A stretch of DNA of 64,000 nt from a virus (lineage: Duplodnaviria > Heunggongvirae > Uroviricota > Caudoviricetes): positions 1 to 64,000 of IMG/VR virus record IMGVR_UViG_3300042564_004805; one strand, 5' to 3'. This document shows positions 1,185 through 15,485 of this stretch, piece after piece. The notes beneath the pieces were generated by a model. The model was not told the DNA's origin, did not search any database, and worked only from the letters and a program-made list of their open reading frames with translations. The translations under genes were made by a program, and so were the position numbers. Within the stretch, counting starts at the first letter, position 1. Every line of letters starts with the position of its first letter.

Positions 1185-1482
1185 GGCTGTCCACCAAATG
1201 ACTCCAGGTCAGCAGGAACATGGTGAGATCTTCTCGAAACTGAAAACTCCAGGTGCATTTGAATTCAAACCTTGCAAATACTTGCATTGTCATATTATCT
1301 TGATACCATGTGGCTCGATGAGTACAAGGCCACATTTGTAGGCACCATTCCTGAACTTGGTCAAGCTCCCGGAGTTTGGGTGCTACCAATGTGGCTGTGT
1401 AGGGCAGTATAGCCATCACTATCGCCTGTTTATCTAGATTCAACCAGGTGCGCCCATGTGAGCAGGAACATGGTGAGATCAT
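1177..1482 (-). CDS. small W/C-rich protein, family 1
   Basis: C-terminus FREDLTMFLLTWSHLVDS; tandem paralog. Confidence 0.55.
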   Translation of the reverse strand: MISPCSCSHGRTWLNLDKQAIVMAILPYTATLVAPKLRELDQVQEWCLQMWPCTHRATWYQDNMTMQVFARFEFKCTWSFQFREDLTMFLLTWSHLVDSHE

Positions 1483-1726
1483 CTTGGTGCCAGAAACTGC
1501 AAGTGATTTGCCACCCCTTGCCTCTAGTTGTTAATCCAGCCCAGTGTATATGCCAGCGCCGCTCCTTACACGGCCATTGTTGCATGCACCAATCACACAC
1601 TTGATCAAAATCATCGCACATAGGCGCTACCAAAGTTACAAGGTAAGAGTCACTCATCAGCCTTGACTTGCCGAACAAGGATCCTTGTGGTCTCAATCCT
1701 ATCCACTGCGGCCCAGGCCACACCAT
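1430..1726 (-). CDS. small W/C-rich protein, family 1 (true start probably internal)
   Basis: C-terminus HQDDLTMFLLTWAHLVES; overlaps its neighbour so the start is uncertain. Confidence 0.5.
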   Translation of the reverse strand: MVWPGPQWIGLRPQGSLFGKSRLMSDSYLVTLVAPMCDDFDQVCDWCMQQWPCKERRWHIHWAGLTTRGKGWQITCSFWHQDDLTMFLLTWAHLVESR

Positions 1727-1840
1727 AGGTGTCCACCAGAGTTTTGATCTCTTGCTCAGCCTCTTCCAGCGTGGAGACTGTGCGCCAAGTGCCGTTGGGA
1801 CTGCTCACTCGAAACTTCACCGTGTCACCTTTGTAGGCCA

Positions 1841-3058
1841 TCATTCGTCTCCCACACTTTGCTGGCTCCACCGCGGCGCACGGAACAGTGAGCGTGCCTC
1901 GTCCACCCGGGTCTGCGTGCCAGTGCATTTGCGGATCACATCGCACACCAGCTCACGCCAGTCCACGTGGCCCTCACGGGCCCAGACCTTGAACACAGCA
2001 CTACGCAGGTTGGGCTCAAGACCCGGTGCTGCCTCCAGTGCAAACCGCTTTCTATCGTCACCAAACTGCCGCCGGAGCTTGACATACTGGTCCTTCCATA
2101 TGTAGGCAGTTTGCCCCACACCCGTCCAGAAGGCGTTCTCGTAGGCGTCGATGCGAGCCAGGTCCTCCACAGGCAGAAAGCTCTTGACGTCGTCCAGCTT
2201 TTCCGCCAGCATGAGGTCGATGAGGTTCTTCTCCTGCGTGAGAGCATCCTTGGCACGGTGGATACGCACATACCAGGCCGATTTCAACTTGGCCATATGT
2301 CCATCATCCCACCGGATGATCCACCCCTCCTCGCCTTCCAGCTCATGCGTCTCCCGAACGAGCTGCTCCATGCTAGCCACAGTACCAGGATAGGCCTTGA
2401 CTAGATCCAGCTCATACTCGGCCGCCAGTTCCTGCATCTGAGAGTAGGTGAGATACTCACCCGAGTTGATGTGACGCACAGCAGTCAGCACCAGTCGATC
2501 AACTGGATAATCACACACAATCTTTTGTTGACGAGTACACCACTCGAAACAGGCAGTGTATCCCTGCTCCAGTGTGTCTCGGATAAATCGGTCATAGTTG
2601 TCTCGAGTTGCCACGAACGGCTCAACCTGTGCTGCTACAGCAGTGGGCCCCATCTTGGTTGCAAGACAGTAGCCCTTACCTAGAGGTAGAGCACGAATCA
2701 TACTTCCATCCAACTTCTCAAGGATGATGTGTGGCTGAGTGAGATCGATGTTTTCAATCAAAGTCTCGCGCCGTTCGCCCACGTTCCAAAACTTCTGAAA
2801 TGCGCGGCTCACCAACTTTCCATCAAGGCTGAACAGCAGCCCCCTACACTCCCGGCGGATAGCCTTGAGTCGAGTCTGCCGCTCGCGCATGCTGGCGCTG
2901 CCTCCAGCAGTATGGACCTCGGGGAACATGTCCGGGCCCATCTGAATGTAGTTGACCACAGTGCCCCAGGGCCGCTGGGCTACAATGAAGCCTTCCACAC
3001 CCTGGACAGCTTCCAGCACTTGATCCAGGTGCGTGATCTCGGGAAACGTGTAGTGCAT
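1841..3058 (-). CDS. rnlA: RNA ligase 1 (T4 RnlA / gene 63-like)
   Basis: ECRGLLFSLDGK, KFWNVGE and the lysine motif I IILEKLDGSM line up with T4 Rnl1 ECRGIMFEMDGE..KFFNLNE..ILTKEDGSL. Confidence 0.85.
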   Translation of the reverse strand: MHYTFPEITHLDQVLEAVQGVEGFIVAQRPWGTVVNYIQMGPDMFPEVHTAGGSASMRERQTRLKAIRRECRGLLFSLDGKLVSRAFQKFWNVGERRETLIENIDLTQPHIILEKLDGSMIRALPLGKGYCLATKMGPTAVAAQVEPFVATRDNYDRFIRDTLEQGYTACFEWCTRQQKIVCDYPVDRLVLTAVRHINSGEYLTYSQMQELAAEYELDLVKAYPGTVASMEQLVRETHELEGEEGWIIRWDDGHMAKLKSAWYVRIHRAKDALTQEKNLIDLMLAEKLDDVKSFLPVEDLARIDAYENAFWTGVGQTAYIWKDQYVKLRRQFGDDRKRFALEAAPGLEPNLRSAVFKVWAREGHVDWRELVCDVIRKCTGTQTRVDEARSLFRAPRWSQQSVGDE

Positions 3059-3126
3059 GTTCAGCGCCTTTCCAGCTACTGTGGGCAGTATAGCACGATT
3101 TTCAGGGCTGTCAACCCGTTTTTTGG

Positions 3127-4029
3127 CTAGATGTGGCAGTCAACAATGGTGATCAGTGTGTCCTCGGGCAGTCCGTTGATCATCTCATTCATCCGAGCAT
3201 ACCACTCACTCTTGGGCATGTCGTCTGTGCTCATGCCCCACCAGCCCATGCTGCCGCGCTCCATCCACGCACCGTCCTTGACAAATGCAAAGGTCATGCC
3301 AGCACTGTCTCGAGCAGTTTGCACATACTCTTCACGGCCGACCAGCACCGAGTCCTCACACCAAAACAAGTCTTTGGCTTGGTGCAGGGCCTGCCTGCCC
3401 GTTTGGTTATGATAGAAATTTCGAGCACCGTCAGTGTCCCTGGGGAAGCGTGAAATCACACTGTCCCAGCTTTCCCAAACATTTGGAGCAAGTGCCCGCA
3501 CCCGATCCCAATAGACTCCGGCCTTCTCGCCTGCCTCGTCACGCATGCCTGCCCAGTCGATGTCTCCCATCCTCGCCTGGTCAGCATACCCTTGTTTTGC
3601 TCCTTGGGTTCCCAGTCCAGGGCGGCCTTGCACACCCTTTGCACCAGGCTTGAGCTTGAGCGTGCCAGTCCATCGCCCACCAACCTCGTACCAGTCCCAC
3701 TGCTTGTTGGGGTTGGTGCGCTTCACAGCCCGGACGAGCTCACCGTCCCGGACCACCACAAATCCAAACTTGTGCTCACCCTCTCGATCAACTTCGCTCT
3801 CATCTTCAACTACCTGGTCTTCAAAACCGTAATATTCCAGCGCATAGTCAAGGGCAGATTGGTCTTCCTCTGCATGTTCCTCCGCATCTTTCATATCGGC
3901 AAGGAACTTGTCAGTGACGTCCACATCCACCACATACTGGTCTGCCACACCAGTGCATTCAAACTCGTGGTAGGGAGCAAGCTGGGCTTCATGGTCAGGC
4001 CCAATAACCATAACGGTGAAGTGACTCAT
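3127..4029 (-). CDS. conserved hypothetical protein (WDWYEVGGRW motif)
   Basis: 300-aa ORF; AGAGGA Shine-Dalgarno site and a sigma70 promoter upstream; function not recognised. Confidence 0.55.
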   Translation of the reverse strand: MSHFTVMVIGPDHEAQLAPYHEFECTGVADQYVVDVDVTDKFLADMKDAEEHAEEDQSALDYALEYYGFEDQVVEDESEVDREGEHKFGFVVVRDGELVRAVKRTNPNKQWDWYEVGGRWTGTLKLKPGAKGVQGRPGLGTQGAKQGYADQARMGDIDWAGMRDEAGEKAGVYWDRVRALAPNVWESWDSVISRFPRDTDGARNFYHNQTGRQALHQAKDLFWCEDSVLVGREEYVQTARDSAGMTFAFVKDGAWMERGSMGWWGMSTDDMPKSEWYARMNEMINGLPEDTLITIVDCHI

Positions 4030-4056
4030 TGCTGTATCCTCTGTTGCGTTGCGTGA

Positions 4057-4084
4057 GTTATAGCAGGTTTTGCAAGGTTGTCAA
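4057..4084 (-). promoter_or_regulatory. sigma70-like early promoter (TTGACA-16-TATAAC) for 3127..4029
   Basis: minus-strand -35 TTGACA at 4079-4084 and -10 TATAAC at 4057-4062, just upstream of the ATG at 4029. Confidence 0.5.
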
Positions 4085-4128
4085 CTGGTTTGTTTTCGGA
4101 TGATTGATGTGCTGGCTGCAGGCACACT

Positions 4129-4422
4129 TTACCTACAAAAACGTTCCACAACGGCACGACCATAAACATCATATCCCACTAGCCTATCAGTGCAAATGGG
4201 CTCTGGTGCAGGAGCATAGATGTTTGGTGCAATGATAGCGCCCAACACTGCACCGCCAACAATGCCCCCTACAAGAGGGGCTACCCAGTTTCCGCCACCG
4301 TGGTTATGGTGATGGTGGCGGTAGTGAGGCGCAGGAGTATAGCCATAGGGGCGGTAGTGGTATCCTTGCGCCCAACAGGGACTGGAGGACAGCAACATGA
4401 ATGCAACAAGGAACCTTTTCAT
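4129..4422 (-). CDS. secreted or membrane glycine-zipper protein
   Basis: N-terminal signal-peptide-like MKRFLVAFMLLSSSPCWA, a His-rich stretch, and a GGIVGGAVLGAII glycine zipper. Confidence 0.5.
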   Translation of the reverse strand: MKRFLVAFMLLSSSPCWAQGYHYRPYGYTPAPHYRHHHHNHGGGNWVAPLVGGIVGGAVLGAIIAPNIYAPAPEPICTDRLVGYDVYGRAVVERFCR

Positions 4423-4430
4423 AACCTTAT

Positions 4431-5213
4431 TTAAGCGGCTGCTTGCAGTGTGTCAACACTCTGCTTGTTACGCATACGCTCGTAGATGCGCCAGGGCCGA
4501 CTGTCCACTTCAAAAGGGTTGCTGACCTTTTGTGAGAGGGCTTGCAGTGCCAGTTGACGGTCAACTTCGCGACGCATCCTCTTGGCTCGTTGGAAACCAG
4601 CCAGCTGCAATCCTGGCAGCATGTCTGAGTATTGGGCTTCCAGTGACTTGCACTGTTCGCGTCGCGTTTGAGTAGCAGTGGCTTGCACCTCGTGGTTGCG
4701 CACCAAATGAGTCAACTGCTTGATGCGCTTGTTCTGCTCAGCAGCCTCTCGGCGCATCTTACGTTCAAAAGCCAGTGAGCGAAAGCTGCCAGTCTCAGGC
4801 GCGGGCCGACTCATTTCCATAGCCTGCAGGAAATCTTCCCAGGGCGTGTTGCCTCGACGGTTGTTGCATCGGCCACACGCCACAGCCAAGTTGGTGATGT
4901 GGTCAGTGCCACCACAACTGCGAGGAGTGATGTGCTCAATGGTGGCACTGTTCTTGAAGCCTTGTTCGCCACGCATCTCGCAGTGACACCAGCAGCAGCG
5001 CCAACGCTGCACCTCAGCTAGCCGTGTGCGATCATACGCCTTGCGAGCCAGTGCTCGAGCCCGGCGAGCTTGATCCTGATTGGGATATACCTCCAGCCAA
5101 TAGGGCAAGGTTCTCATCTGGGGATCATTTACGATGCTGGGCACATCAATTCGCATATCCGTCTCCTTTGCAACACCCACAACATACAGAGTCTGCACAT
5201 CCGTGTCAACCAC
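4431..5213 (-). CDS. HNH endonuclease
   Basis: CCWCHC...EHITPRSCGGTDHITNLAVACGRCNNRRGN is an HNH motif with Cys/His zinc ligands. Confidence 0.8.
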   Translation of the reverse strand: MVDTDVQTLYVVGVAKETDMRIDVPSIVNDPQMRTLPYWLEVYPNQDQARRARALARKAYDRTRLAEVQRWRCCWCHCEMRGEQGFKNSATIEHITPRSCGGTDHITNLAVACGRCNNRRGNTPWEDFLQAMEMSRPAPETGSFRSLAFERKMRREAAEQNKRIKQLTHLVRNHEVQATATQTRREQCKSLEAQYSDMLPGLQLAGFQRAKRMRREVDRQLALQALSQKVSNPFEVDSRPWRIYERMRNKQSVDTLQAAA

Positions 5214-5514
5214 TATGTCCTGTGTTGTTTTGCCAAACCAGCTGAAAATGCGTCACCAGTTCCCTAGTGGGGAAAGCGATATACTGGTATCCAAAAAGCT
5301 GTGTATATGCCCAAACGCACTCACCTTGTGGTGGATCACCAATTCCAGTGTCACCAGGTCCTTGTTGGCGTAGCCAATCCAAGATTTCGTATTGTTGGCG
5401 GTAGTATTCCTCGCCAAGTGTAACAGAGCAGCAGAAAAGATCTTTGGGAAACAAAAGCAGCGCATTGTGGAAGACTCTGTCTTCTGTCACTTGGCTATCA
5501 CAGTGAAATTCCAT
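5206..5514 (-). CDS. hypothetical protein
   Basis: ORF only. Confidence 0.3.
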   Translation of the reverse strand: MEFHCDSQVTEDRVFHNALLLFPKDLFCCSVTLGEEYYRQQYEILDWLRQQGPGDTGIGDPPQGECVWAYTQLFGYQYIAFPTRELVTHFQLVWQNNTGHSG

Positions 5515-5828
5515 CCATGGTATTGGATTTCCATGTGTTCACTTTCCAACCAAACTAGGAACTCTTGCCATAACTTGTGGTCTCGATGGCACACAAAACG
5601 TGGAGGGTGTTCAGGATTTTGAGGGTCAGTCCAGTTATTTCCAGGAGTAAACATGAGCATGGGCCGATTTTCCAAAACACAACTGATGATCTGGCTTTTA
5701 AAGCGTTCCAGATCATAGTGCTGGTCATGCACACGTTCTCGCTCACGTTGCACTGCCAACAACGTGGTTCTCAACAGCTCTTGATCCAACAGCATTTGGC
5801 GTTGGTGTAGGTGTTGTCCCAATTTCAC
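5487..5828 (-). CDS. hypothetical protein
   Basis: ORF only. Confidence 0.35.
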   Translation of the reverse strand: MKLGQHLHQRQMLLDQELLRTTLLAVQRERERVHDQHYDLERFKSQIISCVLENRPMLMFTPGNNWTDPQNPEHPPRFVCHRDHKLWQEFLVWLESEHMEIQYHGWNFTVIAK

Positions 5829-6010
5829 CGACGCGCCCTGCGATACTCGCGTTCAGCCCATGTACTCAGCTTGTCAGCTTCATCAGCATAGCGTGCCCGG
5901 CTGATCTCCCCTCGCATATAACGCTCGTCCAGGCGATCTGTTGCACGTTCCACGGTACGCTCAATCTGATCTTCGGTCATGTGTGGATAGCTCACTTGGT
6001 TTATCAACAT
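5825..6010 (-). CDS. hypothetical small protein
   Basis: ORF directly downstream of a sigma70-like promoter. Confidence 0.4.
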   Translation of the reverse strand: MLINQVSYPHMTEDQIERTVERATDRLDERYMRGEISRARYADEADKLSTWAEREYRRARR

Positions 6011-6014
6011 CTGT

Positions 6015-6042
6015 AATTTAGCGGGTTTGACACTTTTGTCAA
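6015..6042 (-). promoter_or_regulatory. sigma70-like promoter (TTGACA-16-TAAATT) facing an inverted plus-strand TTGACA
   Basis: plus-strand tgtcaa at 6037-6042 and aattta at 6015-6020; a plus-strand ttgaca at 6027-6032 forms an inverted pair with it. Confidence 0.45.
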
Positions 6043-6044
6043 GG

Positions 6045-6072
6045 AGAAAGGTGAGCTTTCACCCACCTTTCT
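6045..6072. terminator. hairpin (9-bp stem AGAAAGGTG / CACCTTTCT, 10-nt loop) downstream of the SPFH gene
   Basis: perfect inverted repeat just past the stop of 6079..6999; T-rich only on the plus side. Confidence 0.35.
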
Positions 6073-6078
6073 GTTTGA

Positions 6079-6999
6079 TTACTTCACATGCACAAAGGGC
6101 AGTGCTGCACCTGGGACCATAGTGGTAGGGAGCTTACCGTCCCATCGCTCTGCAGCCGTAAGTGTGACTAGCTCTGCGTTCGCGCGAAGTGCATCGCCTC
6201 GGGCCCGGATGGCCTTGGCTTCAGCTTCGCCGCGCAGTTGGATAGCTTCAGCTTCAGCTCCAGCTCGTGCCTTGACTGCATCAGCTTCGGCCTGCGCTTT
6301 GGTTACAACAATTTCAGCCTGCACCTTCTCTCGGATCGCATCCTGTCGATCTCTTTCAACAGCCACCTCCGCGAGCATTCGCTGTTCGATGGATTTTTCG
6401 TAAGCGTCACTGAAATCAATGTTTTCAATAGCCAGATTCTCGATCACAAACGGCCCTTTGATGTTGGCCACAATGGCCGCCTTGACATCTGTGCCCAGTC
6501 GGGTGCGATCCTGAATCGCTGTGACTGCGTTGTAGCGACCCATTACGTTCTTGAGCTCGTCACGCACACCCGGCAGGATCACACGGTCTTGAACTCCTCG
6601 GAGCCCGCCAAACTCCTTGTAGACATCGTCCACATTGTCTTCGCTCACACGCCAGCTCACCGAGAAGGTGATAGTTGCAGGTTGCTGGTCTCGGCTGTAG
6701 ACCGCTTCCTTGTCCAGTCGCAGCAGGACGGTCTCGGTGCTCATGAGCACCACATTGTCGATGAAGGGGATTTTGAATCCCAGCCCTGGCTGCACCACGC
6801 TCACCAGCTTGCCGTTGCGGAGCAGCACACCGCGCTGACGCTCATCAACTGTGTACCAGCTGCCGAGGATCACTGTGAGTGCCAGCAGAGCAGCCATTGC
6901 GCCACCTACCATGGTAGCGATGAATCGAGCGTTCACTCGGGGAGTCTCCTGTAGAGGGTTGATTCGAGGATTGGAGTCACGCGGAGGTTGATTCCACAT
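6079..6999 (-). CDS. SPFH/band-7 (prohibitin/HflK-like) membrane protein
   Basis: N-terminal TM helix, SPFH core (VVQPGLGFKIPFIDNV...), and a C-terminal Ala/Glu-rich coiled coil. Confidence 0.85.
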   Translation of the reverse strand: MWNQPPRDSNPRINPLQETPRVNARFIATMVGGAMAALLALTVILGSWYTVDERQRGVLLRNGKLVSVVQPGLGFKIPFIDNVVLMSTETVLLRLDKEAVYSRDQQPATITFSVSWRVSEDNVDDVYKEFGGLRGVQDRVILPGVRDELKNVMGRYNAVTAIQDRTRLGTDVKAAIVANIKGPFVIENLAIENIDFSDAYEKSIEQRMLAEVAVERDRQDAIREKVQAEIVVTKAQAEADAVKARAGAEAEAIQLRGEAEAKAIRARGDALRANAELVTLTAAERWDGKLPTTMVPGAALPFVHVK

Positions 7000-7002
7000 A
7001 TC

Positions 7003-7132
7003 AGTTGGGGTCCTTGCGGTCGGGAGGGGTTCGGTTGCGATCGTAGAAACTTTCGATCAGTTTGCTGGCACCATAGGCACATACGCCAATGAGCACCAGA
7101 GCACCGATGAGTTCAATCAGCAATAGCACAGG
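7003..7132 (-). CDS. possible small TM protein (GTG start) upstream of the SPFH gene, NfeD-like partner?
   Basis: unlisted ~43-codon frame LLLIELIGALVLIGVCAYGASKLIESFYDRNRTPPDRKDPN with an AAAGGA Shine-Dalgarno site; coordinates approximate. Confidence 0.25.
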
Positions 7133-7147
7133 CAGTGTCCTTTGTTG

Positions 7148-7630
7148 TTAGGGATAGAGTTTGAGATGGCCTAGAATGTCTGAAACTTCGGGCTTGTTGC
7201 GATCCACAAGGCACCAAATGCAAGTGGTCTCTTGGCGAGTCATCAGCACACGCCCATCATCCATGGTTTTGATGACAGCTGCCTTGCCATTAGCTGCAAC
7301 AAGATCAGCTACCTCTTGATTTTCCACAAAAAATGGGTAGCTGGGGTCGACGACTGACCCCTTGACAGTGAGGTGGTATTCCCAACCATAAGTGCATCTC
7401 AGACCATGAAGCTGGTCCATTGTGGCACCCAGCACAATTGTGGTGTTGAAGTAGTAGGCACCTTGTGAGACACCGTCGGCAACATACTGTTGAACTAGTG
7501 GATGATCTGCAAATAGGCTCATCATCTGGGTTCCAGCATGATGTACTTGTGCAGCCAGCTTTCCTGGGTTCATACTGGGCAGATCAGTTCGGGCCAGCAC
7601 GTAGACAGCTAGATCAGGCGTGGCTTCCAT
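7148..7630 (-). CDS. peptidyl-tRNA hydrolase, PTH2 family
   Basis: DLPSMNPGKLAAQVHHAG and C-terminal GHLKLYP match the PTH2 signature (DLKMGKGKIAAQCSHA...GHLKLY); start trimmed to MEATPD, which has an AAGGAG site and a promoter upstream. Confidence 0.8.
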   Translation of the reverse strand: MEATPDLAVYVLARTDLPSMNPGKLAAQVHHAGTQMMSLFADHPLVQQYVADGVSQGAYYFNTTIVLGATMDQLHGLRCTYGWEYHLTVKGSVVDPSYPFFVENQEVADLVAANGKAAVIKTMDDGRVLMTRQETTCIWCLVDRNKPEVSDILGHLKLYP

Positions 7631-7654
7631 TTGTTGTTCTCCTTGTGTAGCTTC

Positions 7655-7682
7655 AATATACAGCACAGACAGACTGTGTCAA
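7655..7682 (-). promoter_or_regulatory. sigma70-like promoter (TTGACA-16-TATATT) for the PTH2 gene
   Basis: plus-strand tgtcaa at 7677-7682 and aatata at 7655-7660; AAGGAG Shine-Dalgarno before the ATG at 7630. Confidence 0.55.
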
Positions 7683-7972
7683 CCTTTTTATCTCCGTCCA
7701 TAGAGAGGGTGTTGGTACATTGTATCACACGCAACAGACTCACAGATGCCGTCAACTCCATGTGAGCAAACATTGCAGATAAGTTTCTTGGTTGGGAAAC
7801 TCCATGCAGGACTTCCAGCGTCATGCGCCCAGGTTCTTGGCGACCGTGGTCGCGGCAGGCTGGCTCATGGCGTGGCGGTCCTCGCTGCGGCGGCTGGGCG
7901 GATGAGGACATAAGTAGGTGAAAAATGCACTTCTGAGAACACGCACAGGCCGATGCGCCGGGATGCGGTAAC

Positions 7973-8965
7973 TCATCCGCCGTAGCCGCGCGGATGGGCT
8001 TCGCGCCAGGCCAGGGCGGTGGCGACGATGTCATCCAGTGCTGCGAGGCGCGGCTGCCAGCCGGTTTCGCGCATGATCCGCGCCGGGCTGGCAACAAGGC
8101 GGGCGGGGTCGCCAGGGCGGCGTGGGGCGAAGCGGTGCGGCACCGGGCGGCGGCTGACGCGCTCCACGCTCTGGATCACCTCCAGCACCGAATGCCCGGC
8201 GGCGGTGCCGAGGTTGTAGGTGACGCTGGCGTGGTCCAGCCGCTCCAGCGCCGCGAGGTGGGCGGCGGCGAGGTCGGTGACATGGATGTAGTCGCGGATG
8301 CAGGTGCCGTCCGGCGTGTCGTAATCGGTGCCAAACACGGCGAGTTCGGCGCGACGGCCGAGCATGGCGTCGATGGCCAACGGGATCAGATGGGTTTCCG
8401 GCGTGTGGTCCTCGCCCAGGCGGCCCTGCGGGTCGGCGCCGGCGGCGTTGAAGTAGCGCAGGCAGGCGGAGCGCATGCCGTGGATGCGTTCGGCCCAGCC
8501 CAGCGCGCGCTCCATCATCCATTTGCTTTCGCCGTAGGGTGAGCCGGGGTCGATCGCGGTTTCCTCGTCGATCGGCATGCGGTCTGGCGTGCCGAACAGG
8601 GCGGCGGTGGAGGAGAACACGAAGCGGGGCACGCCGTGCTTCACGCAGGCCTCCAACAGGCGCAGGCCGTTGCCGACATTGGCCGAGAGATAGCCGATCG
8701 GGTCGCGCATGGAATCGCCCACCAGCGACAGCGCGGCGAAGTGGAACACCGCATGCCACGGCCCCTGCGCCAGCACGGACGCGATCGCATCGGGGTCCTC
8801 CAGCGCGCCGGTGACCAGCGTGGCGCCGGGGAGCACGGCTTCGCGATGGCCGGTGCGCAGGTTGTCGAACACCACCACCTCCGCGCCTTGGTCCAGCAGG
8901 GCGGCGACGAGATGGCTGCCGACGAAGCCGGCACCTCCGGTAACGAGAAAGCGGCGTGACATGGC
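7973..8965 (-). CDS. galE: UDP-glucose 4-epimerase (GalE) inside a ~70% GC island
   Basis: VTGGAGFVGSH Rossmann motif, catalytic YGESK, full-length SDR epimerase; the MSRRF ATG is at 8963-8965; GC far above the flanks. Confidence 0.9.
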   Translation of the reverse strand, partial: AMSRRFLVTGGAGFVGSHLVAALLDQGAEVVVFDNLRTGHREAVLPGATLVTGALEDPDAIASVLAQGPWHAVFHFAALSLVGDSMRDPIGYLSANVGNGLRLLEACVKHGVPRFVFSSTAALFGTPDRMPIDEETAIDPGSPYGESKWMMERALGWAERIHGMRSACLRYFNAAGADPQGRLGEDHTPETHLIPLAIDAMLGRRAELAVFGTDYDTPDGTCIRDYIHVTDLAAAHLAALERLDHASVTYNLGTAAGHSVLEVIQSVERVSRRPVPHRFAPRRPGDPARLVASPARIMRETGWQPRLAALDDIVATALAWREAHPRGYGG

Positions 8966-8988
8966 GGCATCCTGAAATGGCCAGCCGG

Positions 8989-9267
8989 CTAGCCAGCGGG
9001 GTCGCGTCCGAGAATGACCGGCTCCTGGGTTGCGATCCAGTGCAGCAGCCCTGTGGGGTCGTATGGGTTGGGGAAGGCACGGCGCGGGCACGCCAGAGCA
9101 GGCAGCAGTTCGCATATGATTTGTTTTTGTTCGGGAGTGTCCTGTTGGTGCATGGCGCTGGCACCCAACTCCATGTACTGTTTAATCAAACCTTGCGCCA
9201 CAGGGTTGTCAGCTACCCGATAGCCCTTGAGTGTGCCCCATTTCAAGAGAATATAGTTTTCGGTCAT
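8989..9267 (-). CDS. hypothetical ORF chimeric across the GC junction
   Basis: N-terminal two thirds encoded in ~45% GC DNA, C-terminal ~35 aa in ~70% GC DNA contiguous with the galE island. Confidence 0.35.
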   Translation of the reverse strand: MTENYILLKWGTLKGYRVADNPVAQGLIKQYMELGASAMHQQDTPEQKQIICELLPALACPRRAFPNPYDPTGLLHWIATQEPVILGRDPAG

Positions 9268-9280
9268 CGTGGCCCCGACT

Positions 9281-9362
9281 CAGTTGAACTCTGTTGTTTC
9301 ACCGTTCTTCACCCGTCGGAGAAGATATGACGGAGAGAGGAACTTGCAGATTTTCCTGCTAT
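9281..9362 (-). pseudogene. duplicated 3' fragment of the RNA ligase gene (RKICKFLSPSYLLRRVKNGETTEFN*)
   Basis: ~80-bp direct repeat of 9783-9860, which encodes the last 26 codons plus stop of 9784..10995, with synonymous and conservative changes. Confidence 0.5.
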
Positions 9363-9373
9363 GCAGTCGATAC

Positions 9374-9646
9374 TCACTTGGCCCGCGTGGTAGCTTTCGT
9401 GTGAGCCCGCACTTGCTTGGTGTACGCGCTCAGGTCACGGATGAAGCAATGCCAGGGGTCAACATCAGCCATCCACATCTGATACACATCCAGGTTTTGT
9501 TCCAGCCAACCAGGCATTTTGACCAGCGCGCGGAGCACAGTATCAGCACGATCACGACTGAGATTGCTAGTGTCTAGACCCAACGCGGCAGCAGCCACAT
9601 ACGCGCGGCCAACGTTAGCAAACATAGGCTTGGGGAGATCGCTCAT
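9374..9646 (-). CDS. hypothetical protein
   Basis: 90-aa ORF with a strong promoter upstream. Confidence 0.5.
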   Translation of the reverse strand: MSDLPKPMFANVGRAYVAAAALGLDTSNLSRDRADTVLRALVKMPGWLEQNLDVYQMWMADVDPWHCFIRDLSAYTKQVRAHTKATTRAK

Positions 9647-9673
9647 TTGTTAGTCCTTTATGTATTATACGTC

Positions 9674-9701
9674 ATATTAGCACAGTTCCGGACATTGTCA
9701 A
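9674..9701 (-). promoter_or_regulatory. sigma70-like promoter (TTGACA-16-TAATAT)
   Basis: plus-strand tgtcaa at 9696-9701 and atatta at 9674-9679, upstream of the ATG at 9646. Confidence 0.55.
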
Positions 9702-9783
9702 CCAGAAAGTTTCTGTTTCTGGGATCAATATGTCTAGGGACTTGGGCATAGGCAGCAGTAGACCTCCAGTAGATCGTAGCGCA

Positions 9784-10995
9784 TCAGTTGAACTCCGTTG
9801 CCTCGCCGTTCTTCACTCGGCGGAGCAGATACGCCGGAGAGATGAATTTGCAGATTTTCCTACCGTGCAGGGGATGCTCGGTGGGAACCAGGCTGCGCAC
9901 CACCACACCTTCCCGCACATTGGTGCCACCCACCGTTGTGACACCGTCTCTCACAGCCTCAATGGCAGTTTGGTCAAAGGGGCCAGTGTAGAGGGTAGGT
10001 ACACAGGGCAGGTCCTTTGCCCAGTAGGCCACGGCATCGGGACTTAGCCACTCCCGCCCGATCCGCATGTCGAACACCCGGAACGTGGGCTTAGTGGTGC
10101 CGTAGTCGAGGTCCTGCACGCCCTTGCCGAAAACTTCTCCCAGGATAGCCACCGGATGAGCACCGCCGTCCACCTTGCTCATCCTGTGGAGGAGCCCGGC
10201 GAGGTCATGGTCGGCTAGCAGTGTGCCAAGTGCCCGCACATAGAGGTTGTTGGCGTTGGCTTCGTTGTTCTTGAACACCAAACCCTGACCGCCTAGTCCC
10301 TTGCTGCTGACAGTGATGCTGCGGTAGCCTGCATGGTCGGGGAACATCTCGGGATGGTCCATGCCTGGGAAGTACTGGATGATGGTACAAGATCCATGAA
10401 TTTTTTCTTGGGCCACCACCACCTCACCAGGTTCGAAGATGTCAGGCACGCTCTCCCAACGCTGAAAATCGTAGGTAAGAGCAGCCTCAGCAACACTGGC
10501 AACTTCACCAGACATCGCAGCGGGAATGGGCGGCTCCCACCTGGTGATGCCCAAGATTGCAGCAGCATCCTCGCCTAGCTTGACTGGATATTCAAGACTG
10601 TCTTTGCCTACTACATGTACATCCGTCGCCGACCCAAAATCAGCAGAAAGGCAATCGTCATCACCATATGCAATGAGCCCATACAGCACACCTTCGCTGA
10701 AAATACCACGCAGCTTGAGTGGCTTCACACGGTTGCCATCACTGCCTGCCAGCACACCCTTACCAGCGTCTTCGTTCCAAAATCCCATGTCCTTGAGCAG
10801 CCATTCAGGCAGCACCGAGGCTGAGGGAATGTATACGACCCAGTCACCGGGCTTGTAGCGCGGGCTACCATCCTCTAGTTTGTTTGCGATGCAGAGATAA
10901 CCGAGGCCTTCAAGGCGCACAAGAGAAAGGCGATCCGCATTCGGATGTTCTTCGACTGCGGCCACACGCACCACAGGGCAACTGAACTTGCTCAT
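9784..10995 (-). CDS. RNA ligase (Rnl2/Rnl5-like nucleotidyltransferase) with N-terminal OB-fold tRNA-binding (Myf/EMAP-like) domain
   Basis: N-terminus VVRVAAVEEHPNADRLSLVRLEGLG...KLRGIFSEG is tRNA_bind-like; motif I EKIHGSC; EGVVVRS; C-terminal RKICKF lysine motif V. Confidence 0.75.
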   Translation of the reverse strand: MSKFSCPVVRVAAVEEHPNADRLSLVRLEGLGYLCIANKLEDGSPRYKPGDWVVYIPSASVLPEWLLKDMGFWNEDAGKGVLAGSDGNRVKPLKLRGIFSEGVLYGLIAYGDDDCLSADFGSATDVHVVGKDSLEYPVKLGEDAAAILGITRWEPPIPAAMSGEVASVAEAALTYDFQRWESVPDIFEPGEVVVAQEKIHGSCTIIQYFPGMDHPEMFPDHAGYRSITVSSKGLGGQGLVFKNNEANANNLYVRALGTLLADHDLAGLLHRMSKVDGGAHPVAILGEVFGKGVQDLDYGTTKPTFRVFDMRIGREWLSPDAVAYWAKDLPCVPTLYTGPFDQTAIEAVRDGVTTVGGTNVREGVVVRSLVPTEHPLHGRKICKFISPAYLLRRVKNGEATEFN

Positions 10996-11026
10996 CTCGT
11001 CCTCACAAAAACTGTCTTATCAACGC

Positions 11027-11055
11027 ACATTAGACTAGGTGTAGCTATGTGTCAA
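11027..11055 (-). promoter_or_regulatory. sigma70-like promoter (TTGACA-17-TAATGT) for the RNA ligase gene
   Basis: plus-strand tgtcaa at 11050-11055 and acatta at 11027-11032. Confidence 0.5.
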
Positions 11056-11064
11056 CCAAAAACT

Positions 11065-11361
11065 TTATGCCATTTCCTCAACCACCCACTCATCCACCAC
11101 CACAGCCCTCACACAGTAATGTGTTCCAGGAGCCATGTCTGTCACAGAATTGAACAAGTGAGTGTAGTATCTTTGGCCAATTTGCTTGATGGTAGGCAGT
11201 TTGAGATAGGTCTTACCAGTTTTGCTGAGATTGCTCTTTACTGCAATCGTGCCGCTGCCATAATAGCTGGGTAGGTCTGCGAGCTTGACTCGCACTTCCC
11301 TGCTGGGGCAAAAATACATGCTAGTAGGCACATGCAGGATCCGATAAACAGCAGCCATCAA
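11065..11361 (-). CDS. hypothetical protein
   Basis: ORF only. Confidence 0.4.
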   Translation of the reverse strand: MMAAVYRILHVPTSMYFCPSREVRVKLADLPSYYGSGTIAVKSNLSKTGKTYLKLPTIKQIGQRYYTHLFNSVTDMAPGTHYCVRAVVVDEWVVEEMA

Positions 11362-11945
11362 ACCAGGCCCATTTCCTGTCGGATGAAGCGGAGCAGGCCA
11401 GCCATGCTGTCCACATTGCCGTTAGCACCAATCACTGCCCGCAGTGCCCGGCTCCGAACGTCTCGAGAGATGTTCATCTGCAGGCTTGTGTTGATCCAGT
11501 CAATCTTCTCGTTCACCTTGGCCATTGTCATCCGGTTGGGGTTGAACTTGGCGTTCCAGTTGCTGCCCATGCCATCACTGCTGGGATCGCGCTTGCTGTT
11601 CACATTGCGCACACCAACGTTTGTAAGACCCTCCTGGATCAGCTGATCCGCCACCTGTTCCTTGTGTTCAGCAGCACGGATCATGTTGGGAAACTCGCCC
11701 TCCACGTCCTGTGTTTCCCAACCCTCATATTGGGTGTTGACAAAAGCCAGCATCAGCCCACCAGTGAGAACGCGATCGTTCTTGTAGTTGCCTACCAAGC
11801 CCTGTTCATATGCATAACGGCTCTTGCCTGCAATACCCTGCCAAGTGGTGTTAGCAGCCTTGCTGTCAACATTGTGAATGCTCACATGAAACAACCGCTT
11901 GGCGGCGTGCTTGTGAACAACGATCTTCTGAGGCTTGTTGGTCAT
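11358..11945 (-). CDS. hypothetical protein (faint amidase_2-like SIHNVD motif)
   Basis: 195-aa ORF with a promoter at 11970-11997; weak resemblance only. Confidence 0.5.
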   Translation of the reverse strand: MTNKPQKIVVHKHAAKRLFHVSIHNVDSKAANTTWQGIAGKSRYAYEQGLVGNYKNDRVLTGGLMLAFVNTQYEGWETQDVEGEFPNMIRAAEHKEQVADQLIQEGLTNVGVRNVNSKRDPSSDGMGSNWNAKFNPNRMTMAKVNEKIDWINTSLQMNISRDVRSRALRAVIGANGNVDSMAGLLRFIRQEMGLV

Positions 11946-11969
11946 GTCATGTACTCCATTTACCAGCGC

Positions 11970-11997
11970 AACATAGCAGGATATTGAGTGTTGTCAA
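11970..11997 (-). promoter_or_regulatory. sigma70-like promoter (TTGACA-16-TATGTT)
   Basis: plus-strand tgtcaa at 11992-11997 and aacata at 11970-11975. Confidence 0.45.
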
Positions 11998-12009
11998 CCA
12001 AAGATGTGC

Positions 12010-12381
12010 CTAAAAGGGCGTAATTGTGCTGGCAAAAGCCTCCACAACGTCCTTGGCCTCTTTCAGGCCCAGAGCCGTTTCAGTTCGCAGCTCTTTGATG
12101 GCATTGATCTTCATGCCAGCACGAACATAGTCTTCCACAGACTTGCTGATGGTGACCCCATACATGGTGGGACGTTCAGTATTTGTGAGGCGTCGCATAG
12201 CTTCCCGACTGGTTTCGTCCAGGATCAAGATGTCGCGTGCATCTCGTGACAGTGCGTAGATGTCGTGTGCCCGAGCTTGCCCTTCTCGAGCACCTTCGTG
12301 GCTTAGGTGGATGATCTCGTTCACCAGGTGCACTAGGCGCTTGAAGTCATTGTCAGAAAGGTTTCCGAGATCATCGGTCAT
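12010..12381 (-). CDS. protein with ribosomal L7/L12 C-terminal domain-like segment
   Basis: C-terminus [26 protein letters not shown] resembles the L7/L12 CTD ([24 protein letters not shown]). Confidence 0.6.
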   Translation of the reverse strand: [123 protein letters not shown]

Positions 12382-12392
12382 AACCGGTTTTC

Positions 12393-12629
12393 CTATTTCT
12401 CAAACACGTGAAGACGAGTGCTGCCAAACGAGGTCTTTACCTTGCGCACACGGTAGCCATGCCGCGCAAGGATCATGCTGGCCTCGCTGTAGAGGCGTTC
12501 ATCCCACCCCCATACCTTGATGCTGCGACCATTTTGAATGCGGTCGCTGAACAGGATTCGAGGTGTACCCAGCAGGGTGATGAGGCTGCGCACAAGACGG
12601 GCGGGAGTGGGTTTGGGTTTGTTGTTCAT
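12393..12629 (-). CDS. hypothetical small protein (start at MNNKPKP)
   Basis: a promoter sits immediately upstream of the internal ATG at 12627-12629. Confidence 0.4.
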   Translation of the reverse strand: MNNKPKPTPARLVRSLITLLGTPRILFSDRIQNGRSIKVWGWDERLYSEASMILARHGYRVRKVKTSFGSTRLHVFEK

Positions 12630-12635
12630 GTGCCT

Positions 12636-12664
12636 AAAGTAGCAGGGGGTTACGGGGTTGTCAA
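12636..12664 (-). promoter_or_regulatory. sigma70-like promoter (TTGACA-17-TACTTT)
   Basis: plus-strand tgtcaa at 12659-12664. Confidence 0.35.
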
Positions 12665-12672
12665 CAGTGGTT

Positions 12673-12978
12673 TTAGCGTTTCCAGCCCAGTTCTTCACCC
12701 TTGCGATATGCGCCCATGATCCAACCCAGTGCCTCAGGATATTCCTGCACATCGTCAAGGATAATGTCAGTAATGGCATCATCCAGTTCAGGATCCGGAT
12801 CCTGCTGGACCCCCATAAGTCGTTCAAGAGCCTCTTCGCGCTGAGCAGCAATGATGCTAGCCTCCAAGAGTGCTTGCATGATCCGAGCCATTTCTGGGTC
12901 ATCTTTCCATTCCGGTGGAAAATTCCCACCAATAATGGTCCACTTACCAAATGGGTTTGGTTGGTCTTTGGGTTCCAC
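12673..12978 (-). CDS. hypothetical acidic protein
   Basis: 101-aa ORF with protein-like composition. Confidence 0.45.
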   Translation of the reverse strand: MEPKDQPNPFGKWTIIGGNFPPEWKDDPEMARIMQALLEASIIAAQREEALERLMGVQQDPDPELDDAITDIILDDVQEYPEALGWIMGAYRKGEELGWKR

Positions 12979-13038
12979 AGCGTTGTTCCTCTATATGCCC
13001 AACAGTTGTAACAGGGCGTTTCACTAATGCAAGATTTT

Positions 13039-14097
13039 TTAGAGAGTTTTCAGGATAAGATGGTTGCTGTTTAGTTTGCCAGAGAGTGCCCACTTTTTGC
13101 CCTTGAGGCTGGTCATCAACACTTCTGCACGTCGAACTGTGGTAATGCTGGTAAATCGTGGCAGCCAACTGTCGGGCTCACGCAAAGCTCGCCCTTGACT
13201 CAAGGCAGGGTCAAAATTGGTGATGCGAGCCCCTTGCACACTGAGCTTTTGCTCTCCACTGGCTCGATACACTTCCACGTGATGAGTTTTGGTGTTGTAG
13301 ACTACGGCCAGTTCAGCACCAACCACATTAGTGGGATCCACTGACGTGATACCCAAATCAGTGTCTGTTGACTTCACTTTGATACGAGTGGCAGCAGCTT
13401 CTCCTTGGCGATCTCTAGTGTCAACAGTGCTGCTCATCAACCTAGCCCGTGCAGTTCGCTTGCCTTGTTTGATGCTGCCACGATTGCTGTTAAGTAGTGT
13501 GAGGGTTTCAACCACTGTTCGTAACACAGGCACCCAATTGCTGACAGTGGGGTCACTTTGGGCTTCATGCAAACAGTCTTTGTAATGAGTCAATAACTGA
13601 CGATGAACTCCGCTGTTGCTGGGTGCATACGCTGATACAATGTCTCGCACACCTGCTGCCACCTCACGTATTGTTCGAGTGCCTTGTAACGTTTGTGTTT
13701 TGAGGTTGTCAATTCGACTGTAACAGTTAACATACTGATCCCGCTGCCGTGTTTGGCTAGTAATGGGCAAATTTTGCCATGTGGGAGTAGCTCGCTCAGT
13801 TTGCTCTGCCAGGCGGTCCAGCAGCAACACCACTCGGGTGAGACTGCTTGCGTTCAACTCAGCACCATGGTTCAAACAAAATGCAATCTTGCCTTCGAGG
13901 CCAACAACACTGCTGCTCAAATCCAGCACACTGTTTTCTTTGCCTAAGGAAGCTGCATAAGTGGCCAGCTGCTTCTTCAACTCGCGTTGGTCCAGTTCAA
14001 CGTTGATTTGATTCAATAAATCAGCGTATTTTGCTTCAAAATCTGCATCAGTGCAACGCAAATTGGCCGCCAGTAGTTTGAGAGTTTCCATTGTCAT
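13039..14097 (-). CDS. hypothetical protein (start at MTMETLK; listed ORF begins at TTG)
   Basis: 352-aa ORF; the promoter at 14104-14133 is immediately upstream, so a leaderless or short-leader transcript is possible. Confidence 0.5.
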   Translation of the reverse strand: MTMETLKLLAANLRCTDADFEAKYADLLNQINVELDQRELKKQLATYAASLGKENSVLDLSSSVVGLEGKIAFCLNHGAELNASSLTRVVLLLDRLAEQTERATPTWQNLPITSQTRQRDQYVNCYSRIDNLKTQTLQGTRTIREVAAGVRDIVSAYAPSNSGVHRQLLTHYKDCLHEAQSDPTVSNWVPVLRTVVETLTLLNSNRGSIKQGKRTARARLMSSTVDTRDRQGEAAATRIKVKSTDTDLGITSVDPTNVVGAELAVVYNTKTHHVEVYRASGEQKLSVQGARITNFDPALSQGRALREPDSWLPRFTSITTVRRAEVLMTSLKGKKWALSGKLNSNHLILKTL

Positions 14098-14103
14098 ACT
14101 CCA

Positions 14104-14133
14104 ATTTATGCAGGCCAATTTGGTTTGTGTCAA
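14104..14133 (-). promoter_or_regulatory. sigma70-like promoter (TTGACA-18-ATAAAT)
   Basis: plus-strand tgtcaa at 14128-14133 and atttat at 14104-14109. Confidence 0.45.
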
Positions 14134-14183
14134 CTGACGGTCAGCAGCCAAAACAGGTAGCTATCGCTGCTGTCAAATTTTGT

Positions 14184-14381
14184 TCATGTCCAAATCAACG
14201 CAAACTCAGCAGCTTGCTCCTCTGAAGGAAACAACCAGCGACCTTGCCCAATATACATCCATTTGATGGGTTGGTCACCAAAGTTGTTGTTGCACCAGAT
14301 GCTGATCTTCAACAGATTGTGAACTGAGTTGATGGGCAAGGTAACTTCATAAGGCAAGTGGCTCCACGGTGTAGGGCCCAT
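14184..14381 (-). CDS. small protein, family 1 (divergent member, ...EEQAAEFALIWT)
   Basis: C-terminal motif W.F..E..A.EF.LIWT. Confidence 0.45.
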   Translation of the reverse strand: MGPTPWSHLPYEVTLPINSVHNLLKISIWCNNNFGDQPIKWMYIGQGRWLFPSEEQAAEFALIWT

Positions 14382-14569
14382 TTATAGCCAACTTAATGCG
14401 AACACAGCCTCATCTTCTTGGGAGATAAAAAACAAGTTCAACCTCAACACCCAAATAGACTTTATCAACGTTATAGGTTGTACATACCCACTGTTTGAAG
14501 CTCGCCCAATTATAATCATCTATGTGAGATTTTGTTTGGTAATAGGCTATAATTTTGTCCCACGTTGGT

Positions 14570-14857
14570 TCACTTATCTTCATTGGCAGCGACATCCCAA
14601 ACCAAGGTGAAAAGAACAACATCCGCTTGATACCAAAAACTCCATTTGAGATAGCATTCTTCCTCACATTGCCCAAACTGGGGGTGAACCATCCACCCAG
14701 TGTAGCCAAAACTTTGGTTGCACCAGCGTGACATTTCCTGACGTCTGGGCTCATCCAACGTGGTTGCTGCCCAATACTTCATGTCCAAATCAAACTGAAT
14801 CGCATAGCATCTTCTTTGTGCGAAAAATACACAACATTGGCTGCTGCAAAGAACCAA
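14570..14857 (-). CDS. small protein, family 1 (…WSFWYQADVVLFTLVWD)
   Basis: family motif near the C-terminus; overlaps 14410..14754, which is in another frame. Confidence 0.4.
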   Translation of the reverse strand: MVLCSSQCCVFFAQRRCYAIQFDLDMKYWAATTLDEPRRQEMSRWCNQSFGYTGWMVHPQFGQCEEECYLKWSFWYQADVVLFTLVWDVAANEDK

Positions 14858-14964
14858 GCAGTGCAGTCCACGTTCCGCTCAAGCCAACCACGCATGCCAG
14901 CTTGATCACTGCCCCCCAGAGTTTCAACTCTGTGGGGCCAAAGTTCTGCACCCAGGTTCTGCAT
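14779..14964 (-). CDS. small protein, family 1 (...HKEDAMRFSLIWT)
   Basis: C-terminal family motif. Confidence 0.45.
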   Translation of the reverse strand: MQNLGAELWPHRVETLGGSDQAGMRGWLERNVDCTAWFFAAANVVYFSHKEDAMRFSLIWT

Positions 14965-14969
14965 GCTTG

Positions 14970-15485
14970 TTACCCTGTGGTCCTTGCTAATTCTTCAAAA
15001 TTATTCACTTGATATTGAATAAGTTTGGGAATTACCATTGTGTTACGATTATACGTGAAAAAGATCCGTCCCATACCAGTTGTGGGATGCCGATTGATAT
15101 TTTGTGTCCAAAACTCTTTGGGTAAGTAAAAATACAAGATATTGTTTTCGCAAGGGTTATAAACTACACACCGTAATGCTCCCTGCTTGACAACACCAGC
15201 ACTGGTTTGTACACCTGAGATTTCACCTTTATGAGATGCTGTACCAGCTTTAACCGGTTCTGATCGAATACTTGCAGTTTTACAATCACTTCCATCACTG
15301 AAATCTTGATGATCCCCTCTGACCAAGTTGTAAGGACCCCATGCCGCCAGACATTCTTCAATCAGCATTTCCACCTTGAAAATCTCTGGCCGCAACATGC
15401 CGATCTCACGAAGTTGAGTGCTGTCAGCGAATTGCGGGTGATAATTTACAATTACCTCCTGCATTAACACAGTTTCTTTGTTCAT
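14970..15485 (-). CDS. hypothetical protein
   Basis: 171-aa ORF. Confidence 0.45.
   Translation of the reverse strand: MNKETVLMQEVIVNYHPQFADSTQLREIGMLRPEIFKVEMLIEECLAAWGPYNLVRGDHQDFSDGSDCKTASIRSEPVKAGTASHKGEISGVQTSAGVVKQGALRCVVYNPCENNILYFYLPKEFWTQNINRHPTTGMGRIFFTYNRNTMVIPKLIQYQVNNFEELARTTG

Follow-up and report, generated by a model that had tools for sequence, protein, structure and literature searches.

The galE island and its limits

The sequence analysed here, referred to as the window, is the 64,000-nt stretch at positions 1 to 64,000 of IMG/VR virus record IMGVR_UViG_3300042564_004805 (Caudoviricetes), of which positions 1-18962 match a stretch of a 326,193-bp ENA contig with 100% identity. 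The window carries an intact bacterial-type galE, encoding UDP-glucose 4-epimerase, in an island of high-GC DNA. An earlier reading of the bare sequence (the original prediction) had pointed out this gene as a possible bacterial acquisition, and our analysis confirms that the observation is real, the gene lying in a captured donor segment of ~1.3 kb. All genes near the island are encoded on the minus strand, and galE is thus co-oriented with its neighbours. The island and the open reading frames (ORFs) at its borders are:

7808-9103, minus strand: donor-derived island, 1296 bp, 69.8% GC, standing in for 327 bp of phage sequence
8963-9103, minus strand: 5' donor flank, with the 3' end of the donor upstream gene (TAG stop at 8989-8991) and, 7 nt ahead of the galE ATG, an AGGA resembling a Shine-Dalgarno site
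7973-8962, minus strand: galE (UDP-glucose 4-epimerase), intact, 329 aa; Pfam Epimerase (4e-57) and TIGR01179
7808-7972, minus strand: 3' donor flank, with the intergenic region between galE and a donor glycosyltransferase family 2 (GT2) gene and approximately the first five GT2 codons (MTLE.), as aligned with the bacterial loci L181, L189 and L014
8989-9267, minus strand: chimeric 92-aa ORF, made up of 57 phage codons, 6 donor codons out of the donor frame and 29 in the donor frame
7752-7805, minus strand: 3' remnant of a small phage ORF (...MEFPNQETYLQCLLTWS*) cut by the insertion, with the last 18 codons left; the full ORF is present in L011

In a 200-bp profile the GC content rises from 0.45-0.51 (7100-7799) to 0.65-0.745 (7800-9099) and returns to 0.495 (9100-9299), which agrees with the jump at ~7795 and the drop at ~9105 noticed originally; the refined limits of 7808-9103 are very near to these. 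The GC content of the island lies 4.7 standard deviations (SD) over that of 400-bp windows from the remainder of the 64 kb, where the maximum is 0.615. The original prediction had also suggested a comparison of tetranucleotide usage, in which the island is set apart from the phage background by 8.4 SD and is donor-like, its distance to a donor-type bacterial contig being 0.0214 as compared with 0.0213 for that contig's own 1296-bp windows. The genomic background of ~42% GC given originally proved too low, as we measured 46.5% for the window overall, ~52% in the 14 kb surrounding the island (positions 1-14000 with the island left out) and ~44% beyond it (14001-64000).

Independent limits were obtained from an IMG/VR contig that lacks the island (L011, ~86% identical to the window, 85-87% on both sides). 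L011 is collinear with window positions 10980-9104 and 7807-6079 only, and between these blocks it holds 327 bp, encoding the native C-terminus of an 88-aa ORF and most of a small ORF ending in ...RMEFPNQETYLQCLLTWS, where the window holds 1296 bp. Since this island-free relative is collinear on both sides, the island is an insertion that replaced 327 bp. The limits deduced from L011 (7808-9103) and from alignment with bacterial donor-type contigs (7806-9103) differ by no more than 2 nt.

The galE product scores 388.3 bits against the NCBIfam equivalog TIGR01179 of the extended SDR family (cut-off 262.3), with residues 5-326 covered, and its closest solved structure is 2c20 (E 1e-93). The NAD-binding GxxGxxG motif, GGAGFVG at residues 8-14, aligns with the corresponding motif in 2c20 and in GalE from Escherichia coli, and a YGESK motif (Y143, K147) is present, so that the earlier description as a full-length UDP-glucose 4-epimerase with these two motifs is borne out. 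In BLASTP alignments, T119, Y143 and K147 correspond to S124, Y149 and K153 of E. coli GalE, and the same residues align in 2c20. L289 aligns with Y299 of the E. coli enzyme, an observation from which we draw no conclusion on substrate specificity. No frameshift or stop was found in galE in any of the other loci extracted (23/23).

A block of high GC within DNA of lower GC is the classic appearance of a chimera, and an assembly or contig chimera, in which the assembler joined bacterial reads into a phage contig, was named in the original prediction as the alternative. Some contigs of the carrier phage do end inside or at the island (L192-L194), and one contig, L187, carries the island between upstream sequence of one phage and downstream sequence of a different one, indicating that a shared island confuses assemblers; contig ends inside the island are to be expected when it is common to several genomes in a sample. 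However, both junction 60-mers were found exactly in eight loci (L001-L007 and L191), that is, in eight assemblies from different samples, sources and pipelines, and the upstream 60-mer also in L192 and L193. In a public collection, 39 indexed blocks contain GalE with exactly this sequence, and the contigs carrying it that we read, from ENA, Logan, JGI and NCBI samples, have the same phage neighbours in all cases. Likewise, contigs with an identical copy of the neighbouring 90-aa ORF continue in four of four distinct places into the chimeric 92-aa ORF, and into galE where the contig extends that far. The phage flanks are collinear around the island, a defined 327 bp has been replaced, and the downstream junction recurs with a single mismatch in nine contigs of a phage with flanks only 80-89% identical to those of the window. 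In addition, the phage copies differ by at least 7% from every sampled bacterial copy, so that no recovered bacterial sequence could be the source of misjoined reads. A chimera is therefore to all intents refuted, and the island is confirmed as a real part of the phage genome. As the shared island is a place where contigs break or form hybrids, the region would probably be mishandled by automated binning or contamination filters.

Donor locus and anatomy of the junctions

Beyond the phage cluster, the closest GalE proteins are metagenomic. The closest named relatives, identified by the protein comparison that had been proposed for tracing the donor lineage, are from metagenome-assembled genomes (MAGs) of Acetobacterales/Acetobacteraceae (81-84% identity) and from Limobrevibacterium (76%). 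Within the same 90% cluster, alleles differing at 12-15 residues are found on bacterial contigs of 71-72% GC (L181-L183, L189 and L190), and a further donor-type allele, P0134, shows nine residue differences in a protein-level comparison and has a bacterial context; the contigs of 71-72% GC reach 95% amino acid identity to the phage GalE. L181-L183 align with the whole island (window 9103-7806) at 89.7-89.9% DNA identity. The bacterial gene order is upstream gene, galE, a 926-aa GT2, a GT4, a response regulator and a lactamase_B gene; this synteny is kept in six bacterial contigs of 71-73% GC, and the more distant L012 and L014 show the same order. As a syntenic bacterial locus aligns at ~90% DNA identity together with its flanks, the gene is of cellular origin, and the composition, the conserved bacterial synteny and the truncated neighbour genes show that the direction of transfer was from bacterium to phage. 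The expectation of a high-GC proteobacterial donor was correct and can be narrowed to an alphaproteobacterium with Acetobacterales relatives.

On the phage side, galE is surrounded by viral genes (RNA ligase, PTH2-like, Band_7 and HNH endonuclease genes), and the window encodes a T4-type family B DNA polymerase, a 2378-aa repetitive virion protein, two RNA ligases and HNH/NUMOD3 endonucleases. The best matches of the DNA polymerase are Agrobacterium phage Atu_ph07 (44%) and jumbo phages of 350-490 kb, among them Cronobacter phage GAP32, Xanthomonas phage XbC2 and Sinorhizobium phage Phosso, all within a range of 42-45%. The donor most likely represents the host of this phage, and donor-type bacteria and carrier phages share samples (L183 and L179 in JGI 3300044950, as well as JGI 3300046006).

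A donor other than the host, with the cassette arriving by an indirect route (another phage, a plasmid or free DNA), would accommodate the large GC gap between phage and donor (~25 points), and the presence of the cassette in more than one phage genome means that another phage may be the source. Transfer from phage to phage requires co-infection of one cell, however, so the carriers should share a host range, and both phage backgrounds best match phages of alphaproteobacteria (Atu_ph07 and the Sinorhizobium phiM12 group). The Agrobacterium host of Atu_ph07 has a GC content of ~59%. As the phage itself has 37.1% (PMC6102473), a large GC deficit has a precedent in the clade, and the deficit of Atu_ph07 is comparable to the one seen here. 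Taken together with the co-occurrence of donor-type bacteria and carrier phages, these observations make an indirect route rather unlikely, and a donor that is also the host remains our preferred reading.

Donor DNA is present on either side of galE as originally described, the measured lengths being 141 bp at the 5' side and 165 bp at the 3' side instead of ~125 and ~180 bp. Translation of the 92-aa ORF and alignment with the donor locus support the earlier proposals that its final 35 codons are derived from the island and that the end of the donor upstream gene was captured with galE. The last 29 residues of the ORF are the in-frame C-terminus of that gene (...RRAFPDPFDPAGLLQWIATQEPAILGRDPAG* in L014), and the ORF terminates at the donor's own stop. 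An 88-aa homologue of this ORF is intact in L011 and L175, with a different C-terminus.

At the upstream junction, phage sequence ...GAACTGCTGC is joined to donor sequence CTGCTCTGGCG... with ~2 nt in common, and at the downstream junction donor sequence ...ATGACGCTGGAAG is joined to phage sequence TCCTGCATGGAGTTTCCC...; the sequence common to the junctions and the phage DNA is only 2-7 nt. A repeat search at 7808 and 9103 revealed no direct or inverted repeats and no mobile-element signature, and the island contains no recombinase gene, its content being galE and donor gene fragments only. Given the lack of flanking repeats and of a recombinase gene and the minimal sharing at the junctions, the joining is, to judge from the sequence, an illegitimate recombination with little or no homology. 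A transposon, an insertion sequence and an integron cassette were also considered and ruled out, as the junctions are without repeats and the island is without transposase or integrase.

The only indel seen in the captured DNA is a 10-nt deletion (GCGCCGATCT, located between two GCGCCG repeats) at 9088/9087 in the window type, as compared with the bacterial copies and the copies of a third phage setting described below (setting C). The deletion shifts the phage ORF into the donor frame, and the ORF thereby ends at the donor TAG 26 nt before the galE ATG. In the 5' flank, a stop ahead of galE is found in the donor frame only. Both remaining frames, one of which is that of galE itself, stay open, so that the upstream ORF would read on into galE if the deletion were absent.

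Two side observations concern the sequences that meet at the junctions. In the donor intergenic region between galE and GT2, an AT-rich element (GTGTTCTCAGAAGTGCATTTTTCACCTACTTATGTCCTCATCCG) varies hardly at all among the bacterial loci of ~71% GC (L181, L189, L014, L013 and L012). The region also contains an upstream ORF of 15 codons that ends in an overlap (ATGA) with the start of GT2, and it may be a regulatory leader; an Rfam search of the AT-rich element in the 3' flank matched no family. The small phage ORF cut by the insertion belongs to a family with the C-terminal sequence ...FPNxETYxxCxLTWS (window 7752-7805, L008 1232-1455, L175 3887-4108 and L011 ~2055-2341), the members of which are in tandem in some strains, the L175 type having an additional 73-aa paralogue. 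The downstream junction of the island lies exactly where the conserved 3' module of these ORFs starts.

The cassette in three phage settings and its age

The cassette is already present in two phage lineages with flanks 11-20% apart and in a third genome with unrelated flanks:

Setting A: window type, ~326-kb jumbo phage
Setting B: L175-L180, L186, L008 and L188; same phage family, flanks 80-89% identical to the window
Setting C: L184/L185, a 177-kb JGI contig; flanks unrelated to the window

In setting B, where an additional nucleotidyltransferase gene and the 73-aa paralogue are found, the island is 98.1% identical to that of the window and the downstream junction is the same as in setting A (1 mismatch in 60 nt); the two therefore have one origin. 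The upstream junction differs. Here the 88-aa ORF is intact, and it is the small ORF whose first 26 codons run into donor DNA, only 19 nt ahead of the galE ATG and through a GCCATT microhomology, which results in a fusion ORF of 359 aa. Deletion alone cannot turn A into B or B into A, and setting B would be explained by recombination between an island-bearing and an empty phage. The short contig L008, 98% identical, had been a candidate for the bacterial donor and was rejected, as it represents a diverged phage relative.

Setting C has several flank ORFs matching PHROG families, and a 140-aa ORF finds its best matches in Atu_ph07 and Sinorhizobium phiM12-type phages. Its island is 96.2% identical to that of the window and is longer at both ends. 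Upstream, the donor alignment starts 11 nt further out (~55 nt by inspection of the sequence), and downstream the donor DNA is 136 nt longer and includes ~45 GT2 codons. A chimeric ORF ending in the tail of the donor upstream gene is formed in this setting also. Empty-site relatives of setting C are found in IMG/VR (L195-L197), with 46 bp in place of ~1.5 kb. Settings B and C occur together in one sample (JGI 3300044991), and L187 (JGI 3300046006) combines the upstream side of B with the downstream side of C, with a clean switch within galE nt 763-855. L187 is either a real recombinant between phages or an assembly hybrid created via the shared island.

Setting C, and perhaps others, may go back to independent captures from close host strains rather than to a single capture followed by transfer between phages. 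The setting C contig L184 has more donor DNA at both ends, and thus cannot descend from the window type, and it has empty-site relatives of its own. Furthermore, the phage copies differ from one another (2.2-3.4%) as much as two bacterial alleles do (2.7%), and the site patterns conflict, grouping A with B at some sites and B with C at others. On the other hand, the identical downstream junction gives the window type and the L175 type one origin, all phage copies share flank states without a match in L181 and L189 (e.g., GGCTGGCCATTTCAGGATGCC), and they share an excess of GC>AT changes. The shared flank states and the GC>AT excess would fit a phage-resident ancestor or one unsampled donor strain equally well, and we consider independent captures quite possible, if somewhat short of probable. 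Either way, three junction configurations in co-occurring phages imply that the cassette spreads between phages or that galE has been selected repeatedly.

More speculatively, the cassette could be a circulating module that recombines among unrelated large phages co-infecting one freshwater Acetobacterales host and is repeatedly re-homogenised against the chromosomal allele of the host. We regard this as possible but doubtful. If true, re-homogenisation would hold the cassette near the host composition despite a long stay in phage genomes of 46-52% GC, and the circulating cassette would point directly to the host of an uncultivated jumbo phage of ~326 kb, the GC content of which lies ~25 points below that of this host.

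Within galE (990 nt), the phage copies differ among themselves at 22-34 sites and from the nearest bacterial alleles at 72-80 sites, while those two alleles differ at 27. Of the variable sites among phage copies, 39/45 are at third codon positions, and the ratio of nonsynonymous to synonymous substitution rates (dN/dS) is 0.03-0.06 among the phage copies (P < 1e-8 against neutrality), the same as between the two bacterial alleles. The GC content at third codon positions (GC3) is 0.873-0.879 in the phage copies as compared with 0.906-0.912 in the nearest bacteria and 0.92-0.93 in others, with 0.855 in one MAG. When changes were polarised, the phage branch showed 18-20 GC>AT against 1-3 AT>GC, and the bacterial branches 9-13 against 4-5. 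The excess of GC>AT on the phage branch and the lowered GC3 show that amelioration has just begun. The original prediction that no amelioration has occurred captured the near-donor composition of the island, and was slightly too strong in view of a GC3 of 0.88 versus 0.91-0.93 and the GC>AT excess. Similarly, a very recent transfer had been proposed; the cassette is indeed young, but the nearest bacterial allele is 7-8% away and the cassette is already present in several phage backgrounds.

Capture, probable expression and likely role of galE

Overall, capture of a host-derived galE is a likely explanation, and the events may be outlined as follows. A chromosome fragment of ~1.3 kb from a freshwater Acetobacterales bacterium of ~71% GC, running from the end of the upstream gene through galE and the intergenic region into the start of the GT2 gene, was joined into the ~326-kb jumbo phage; freshwater is our reading of the names of sample series and MAGs. 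The fragment landed in a hyperplastic region of small ORFs by illegitimate joining, with the loss of 327 bp of phage DNA. galE was kept intact together with its own ribosome-binding site, and a phage promoter upstream of the 90-aa ORF probably drives its transcription. In infection, GalE would interconvert UDP-glucose and UDP-galactose, and UDP-galactose would likely be kept available to phage glycosyltransferases once host expression declines. Since other phages contain nearly the same cassette, it has either passed between co-infecting phages or been taken up from one bacterial lineage on more than one occasion.

Several points weigh against parts of this explanation. The nearest sampled bacterial allele is 7-8% off in galE, so the actual donor strain is unsampled, and the host assignment follows from a single assumption, namely that phages take DNA from their hosts. 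The host has a galE of its own, and a benefit to the phage is thus an assumption. Moreover, the captured flanks are near identical among the phage copies (0-3 differences) as against 22-34 differing sites in galE, the differences between the A and B copies of galE cluster at nt 423-609, and the site patterns conflict. Part of the synonymous variation may accordingly have been brought in by recombination with bacterial alleles, possibly those of the host. Imported variation would already be filtered by selection, which makes the low dN/dS weaker evidence for selection inside the phage, and recombination with host alleles is a possible reason for the slow amelioration.

The genes next to the island and the candidate promoters, which were identified by a consensus scan, are:

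9784-10995, minus strand: RNA ligase
9674-9701, minus strand: sigma-70-like, TG-extended promoter (TTGACA-16-TAATAT) ahead of the 90-aa ORF, from which a 90-aa/92-aa/galE transcript may start
9374-9646, minus strand: 90-aa ORF
7655-7682, minus strand: sigma-70-like promoter TTGACA-16-TATATT (11/12) for the PTH2-like gene, marking the end of the galE unit
7148-7666, minus strand: PTH2-like gene
6079-6999, minus strand: Band_7 gene

The consensus scan found no terminator-like site between the promoter at 9701-9674 and the next promoter at 7682-7655. Possible users of UDP-galactose, as proposed originally, are encoded elsewhere in the window, where the following glycosyltransferase (GT) and other glycan-related genes were identified:

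17220-17948: GT25
35935-36843: GT1
38560-40257: carbamoyltransferase
40688-41563: GT2/GT7-like, weak match
49977-50849: GT17
50868-51575: GT34
58128-59120: GT4

The Pfam families GT25 and GT34 include galactosyltransferases. With GT25, GT34, GT17, GT4, GT1 and GT2-type genes in the window, a supply of UDP-galactose for glycosyltransferases fits the gene content, and the most likely role of the captured gene would be that of an auxiliary epimerase securing UDP-galactose for the phage enzymes. The glycan-related set at 35935-59120 combines GT17 and GT34, families that are commoner in eukaryotes, with the carbamoyltransferase, GT1 and GT4 genes and weak matches to radical-SAM and methyltransferase families.

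The insertion could be real and galE nevertheless a neutral passenger, unused by the phage and with its decay yet to come. The host already carries galE, the flanks show that non-functional donor DNA rides along, and the low dN/dS could partly stem from imported variation of bacterial alleles. Several observations speak against this, as the island is present in every contig of the carrier phage population that was read, three junction configurations occur in at least two phage backgrounds, and the ORF is intact in 23/23 other loci while the flank has lost 10 nt. galE also points in the same direction as its neighbours, is preceded by a ribosome-binding site and lacks an upstream terminator, and few auxiliary genes are commoner in aquatic viruses, galE ranking among the most frequent ones in viruses of Baltic Sea water (PMC9301287). 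We therefore consider a neutral passenger improbable, and retention of galE as an auxiliary epimerase remains the favoured interpretation.

Phage-borne galE and capture of host genes by phages are already well known, and what is unusual here is the preservation of the event and its sharing among phages. UDP-glucose 4-epimerase is likewise found among the viral genes in aquatic viromes (galE, K01784), and GalE-like proteins are encoded in many IMG/VR and GenBank phage records, at no more than 49% identity to the window GalE; a protein comparison against IMG/VR gave no close GalE, the best being 48% identical. Since the other viral copies are at most 49% identical, the galE of the window represents a separate acquisition, and it differs from them in retaining the base composition of the donor, donor flanks on either side and pieces of the neighbour genes. 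The psbA genes of cyanophages are host-derived genes that are old, partly ameliorated and core-like, and form mosaics with host alleles. As with psbA, a host metabolic gene is intact in a phage, with patterns suggesting exchange between phage and host or among phage copies, whereas the galE cassette is young, is confined to few related populations and has non-coding host flanks. In the hyperplastic regions of T4-like phages, small ORFs behind early promoters get shuffled, and the island similarly lies among small ORFs with sigma-70-like promoters and duplications at gene 3' ends. Unlike in those regions, the inserted DNA is bacterial chromosome and not a phage cassette, and the sharing at the primary junctions is at most 2-7 nt. 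With Atu_ph07/GAP32-like jumbo phages, finally, the carrier has in common a genome of >300 kb, the nearest polymerases and a GC content far under that of an alphaproteobacterial host. These phages are distant relatives only, and a megablast search of window 5000-12000 against GenBank phages gave no match at the nucleotide level.

Captures are seldom caught so early that the junctions, the replaced phage sequence, the donor locus, the truncated neighbours and a secondary 10-nt deletion can all be read. The locus also provides a host hypothesis, in linking an uncultivated freshwater jumbo phage to Acetobacterales despite a large GC mismatch.

Further observations were made on the gene neighbourhood. 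GC3 is 0.62 in the RNA ligase gene and 0.46 in the PTH2-like gene. The final 96 bp of the RNA ligase gene (9784-9879) are repeated with 82% identity at 9280-9375, between the 90-aa and 92-aa ORFs, and the repeat is also found in L011 and L175. It looks like the scar of an older insertion of a 90-aa ORF cassette via recombination at the gene 3' end. Genes for RNA repair and translation rescue are concentrated in the window (1841-3058, 7148-7666, 9784-10995, 21199-22086 and 25077-25655), the set comprising a T4 Rnl1-like ligase, a second RNA ligase with an OB domain, a PTH2-like hydrolase, an RlaP nucleotidyltransferase and an Rv2179c-like exoribonuclease; the L175-type relative additionally encodes Thg1 and HD_4. 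This gene content suggests a counter to host defences that target tRNA. A search of the 64-kb window for tRNA genes found none. The ORF at 28787-35923 encodes the 2378-aa giant repetitive structural protein, in which PHROG virion structural and tail-spike families match 11-23 repeated stretches. A variable spot is located ~3 kb from the island in the HNH endonuclease region (4431-5213), where strains that are otherwise at least 99.4% identical (L003-L005) encode an endonuclease of 260 or 181 aa and have a 300-aa ORF present or absent.

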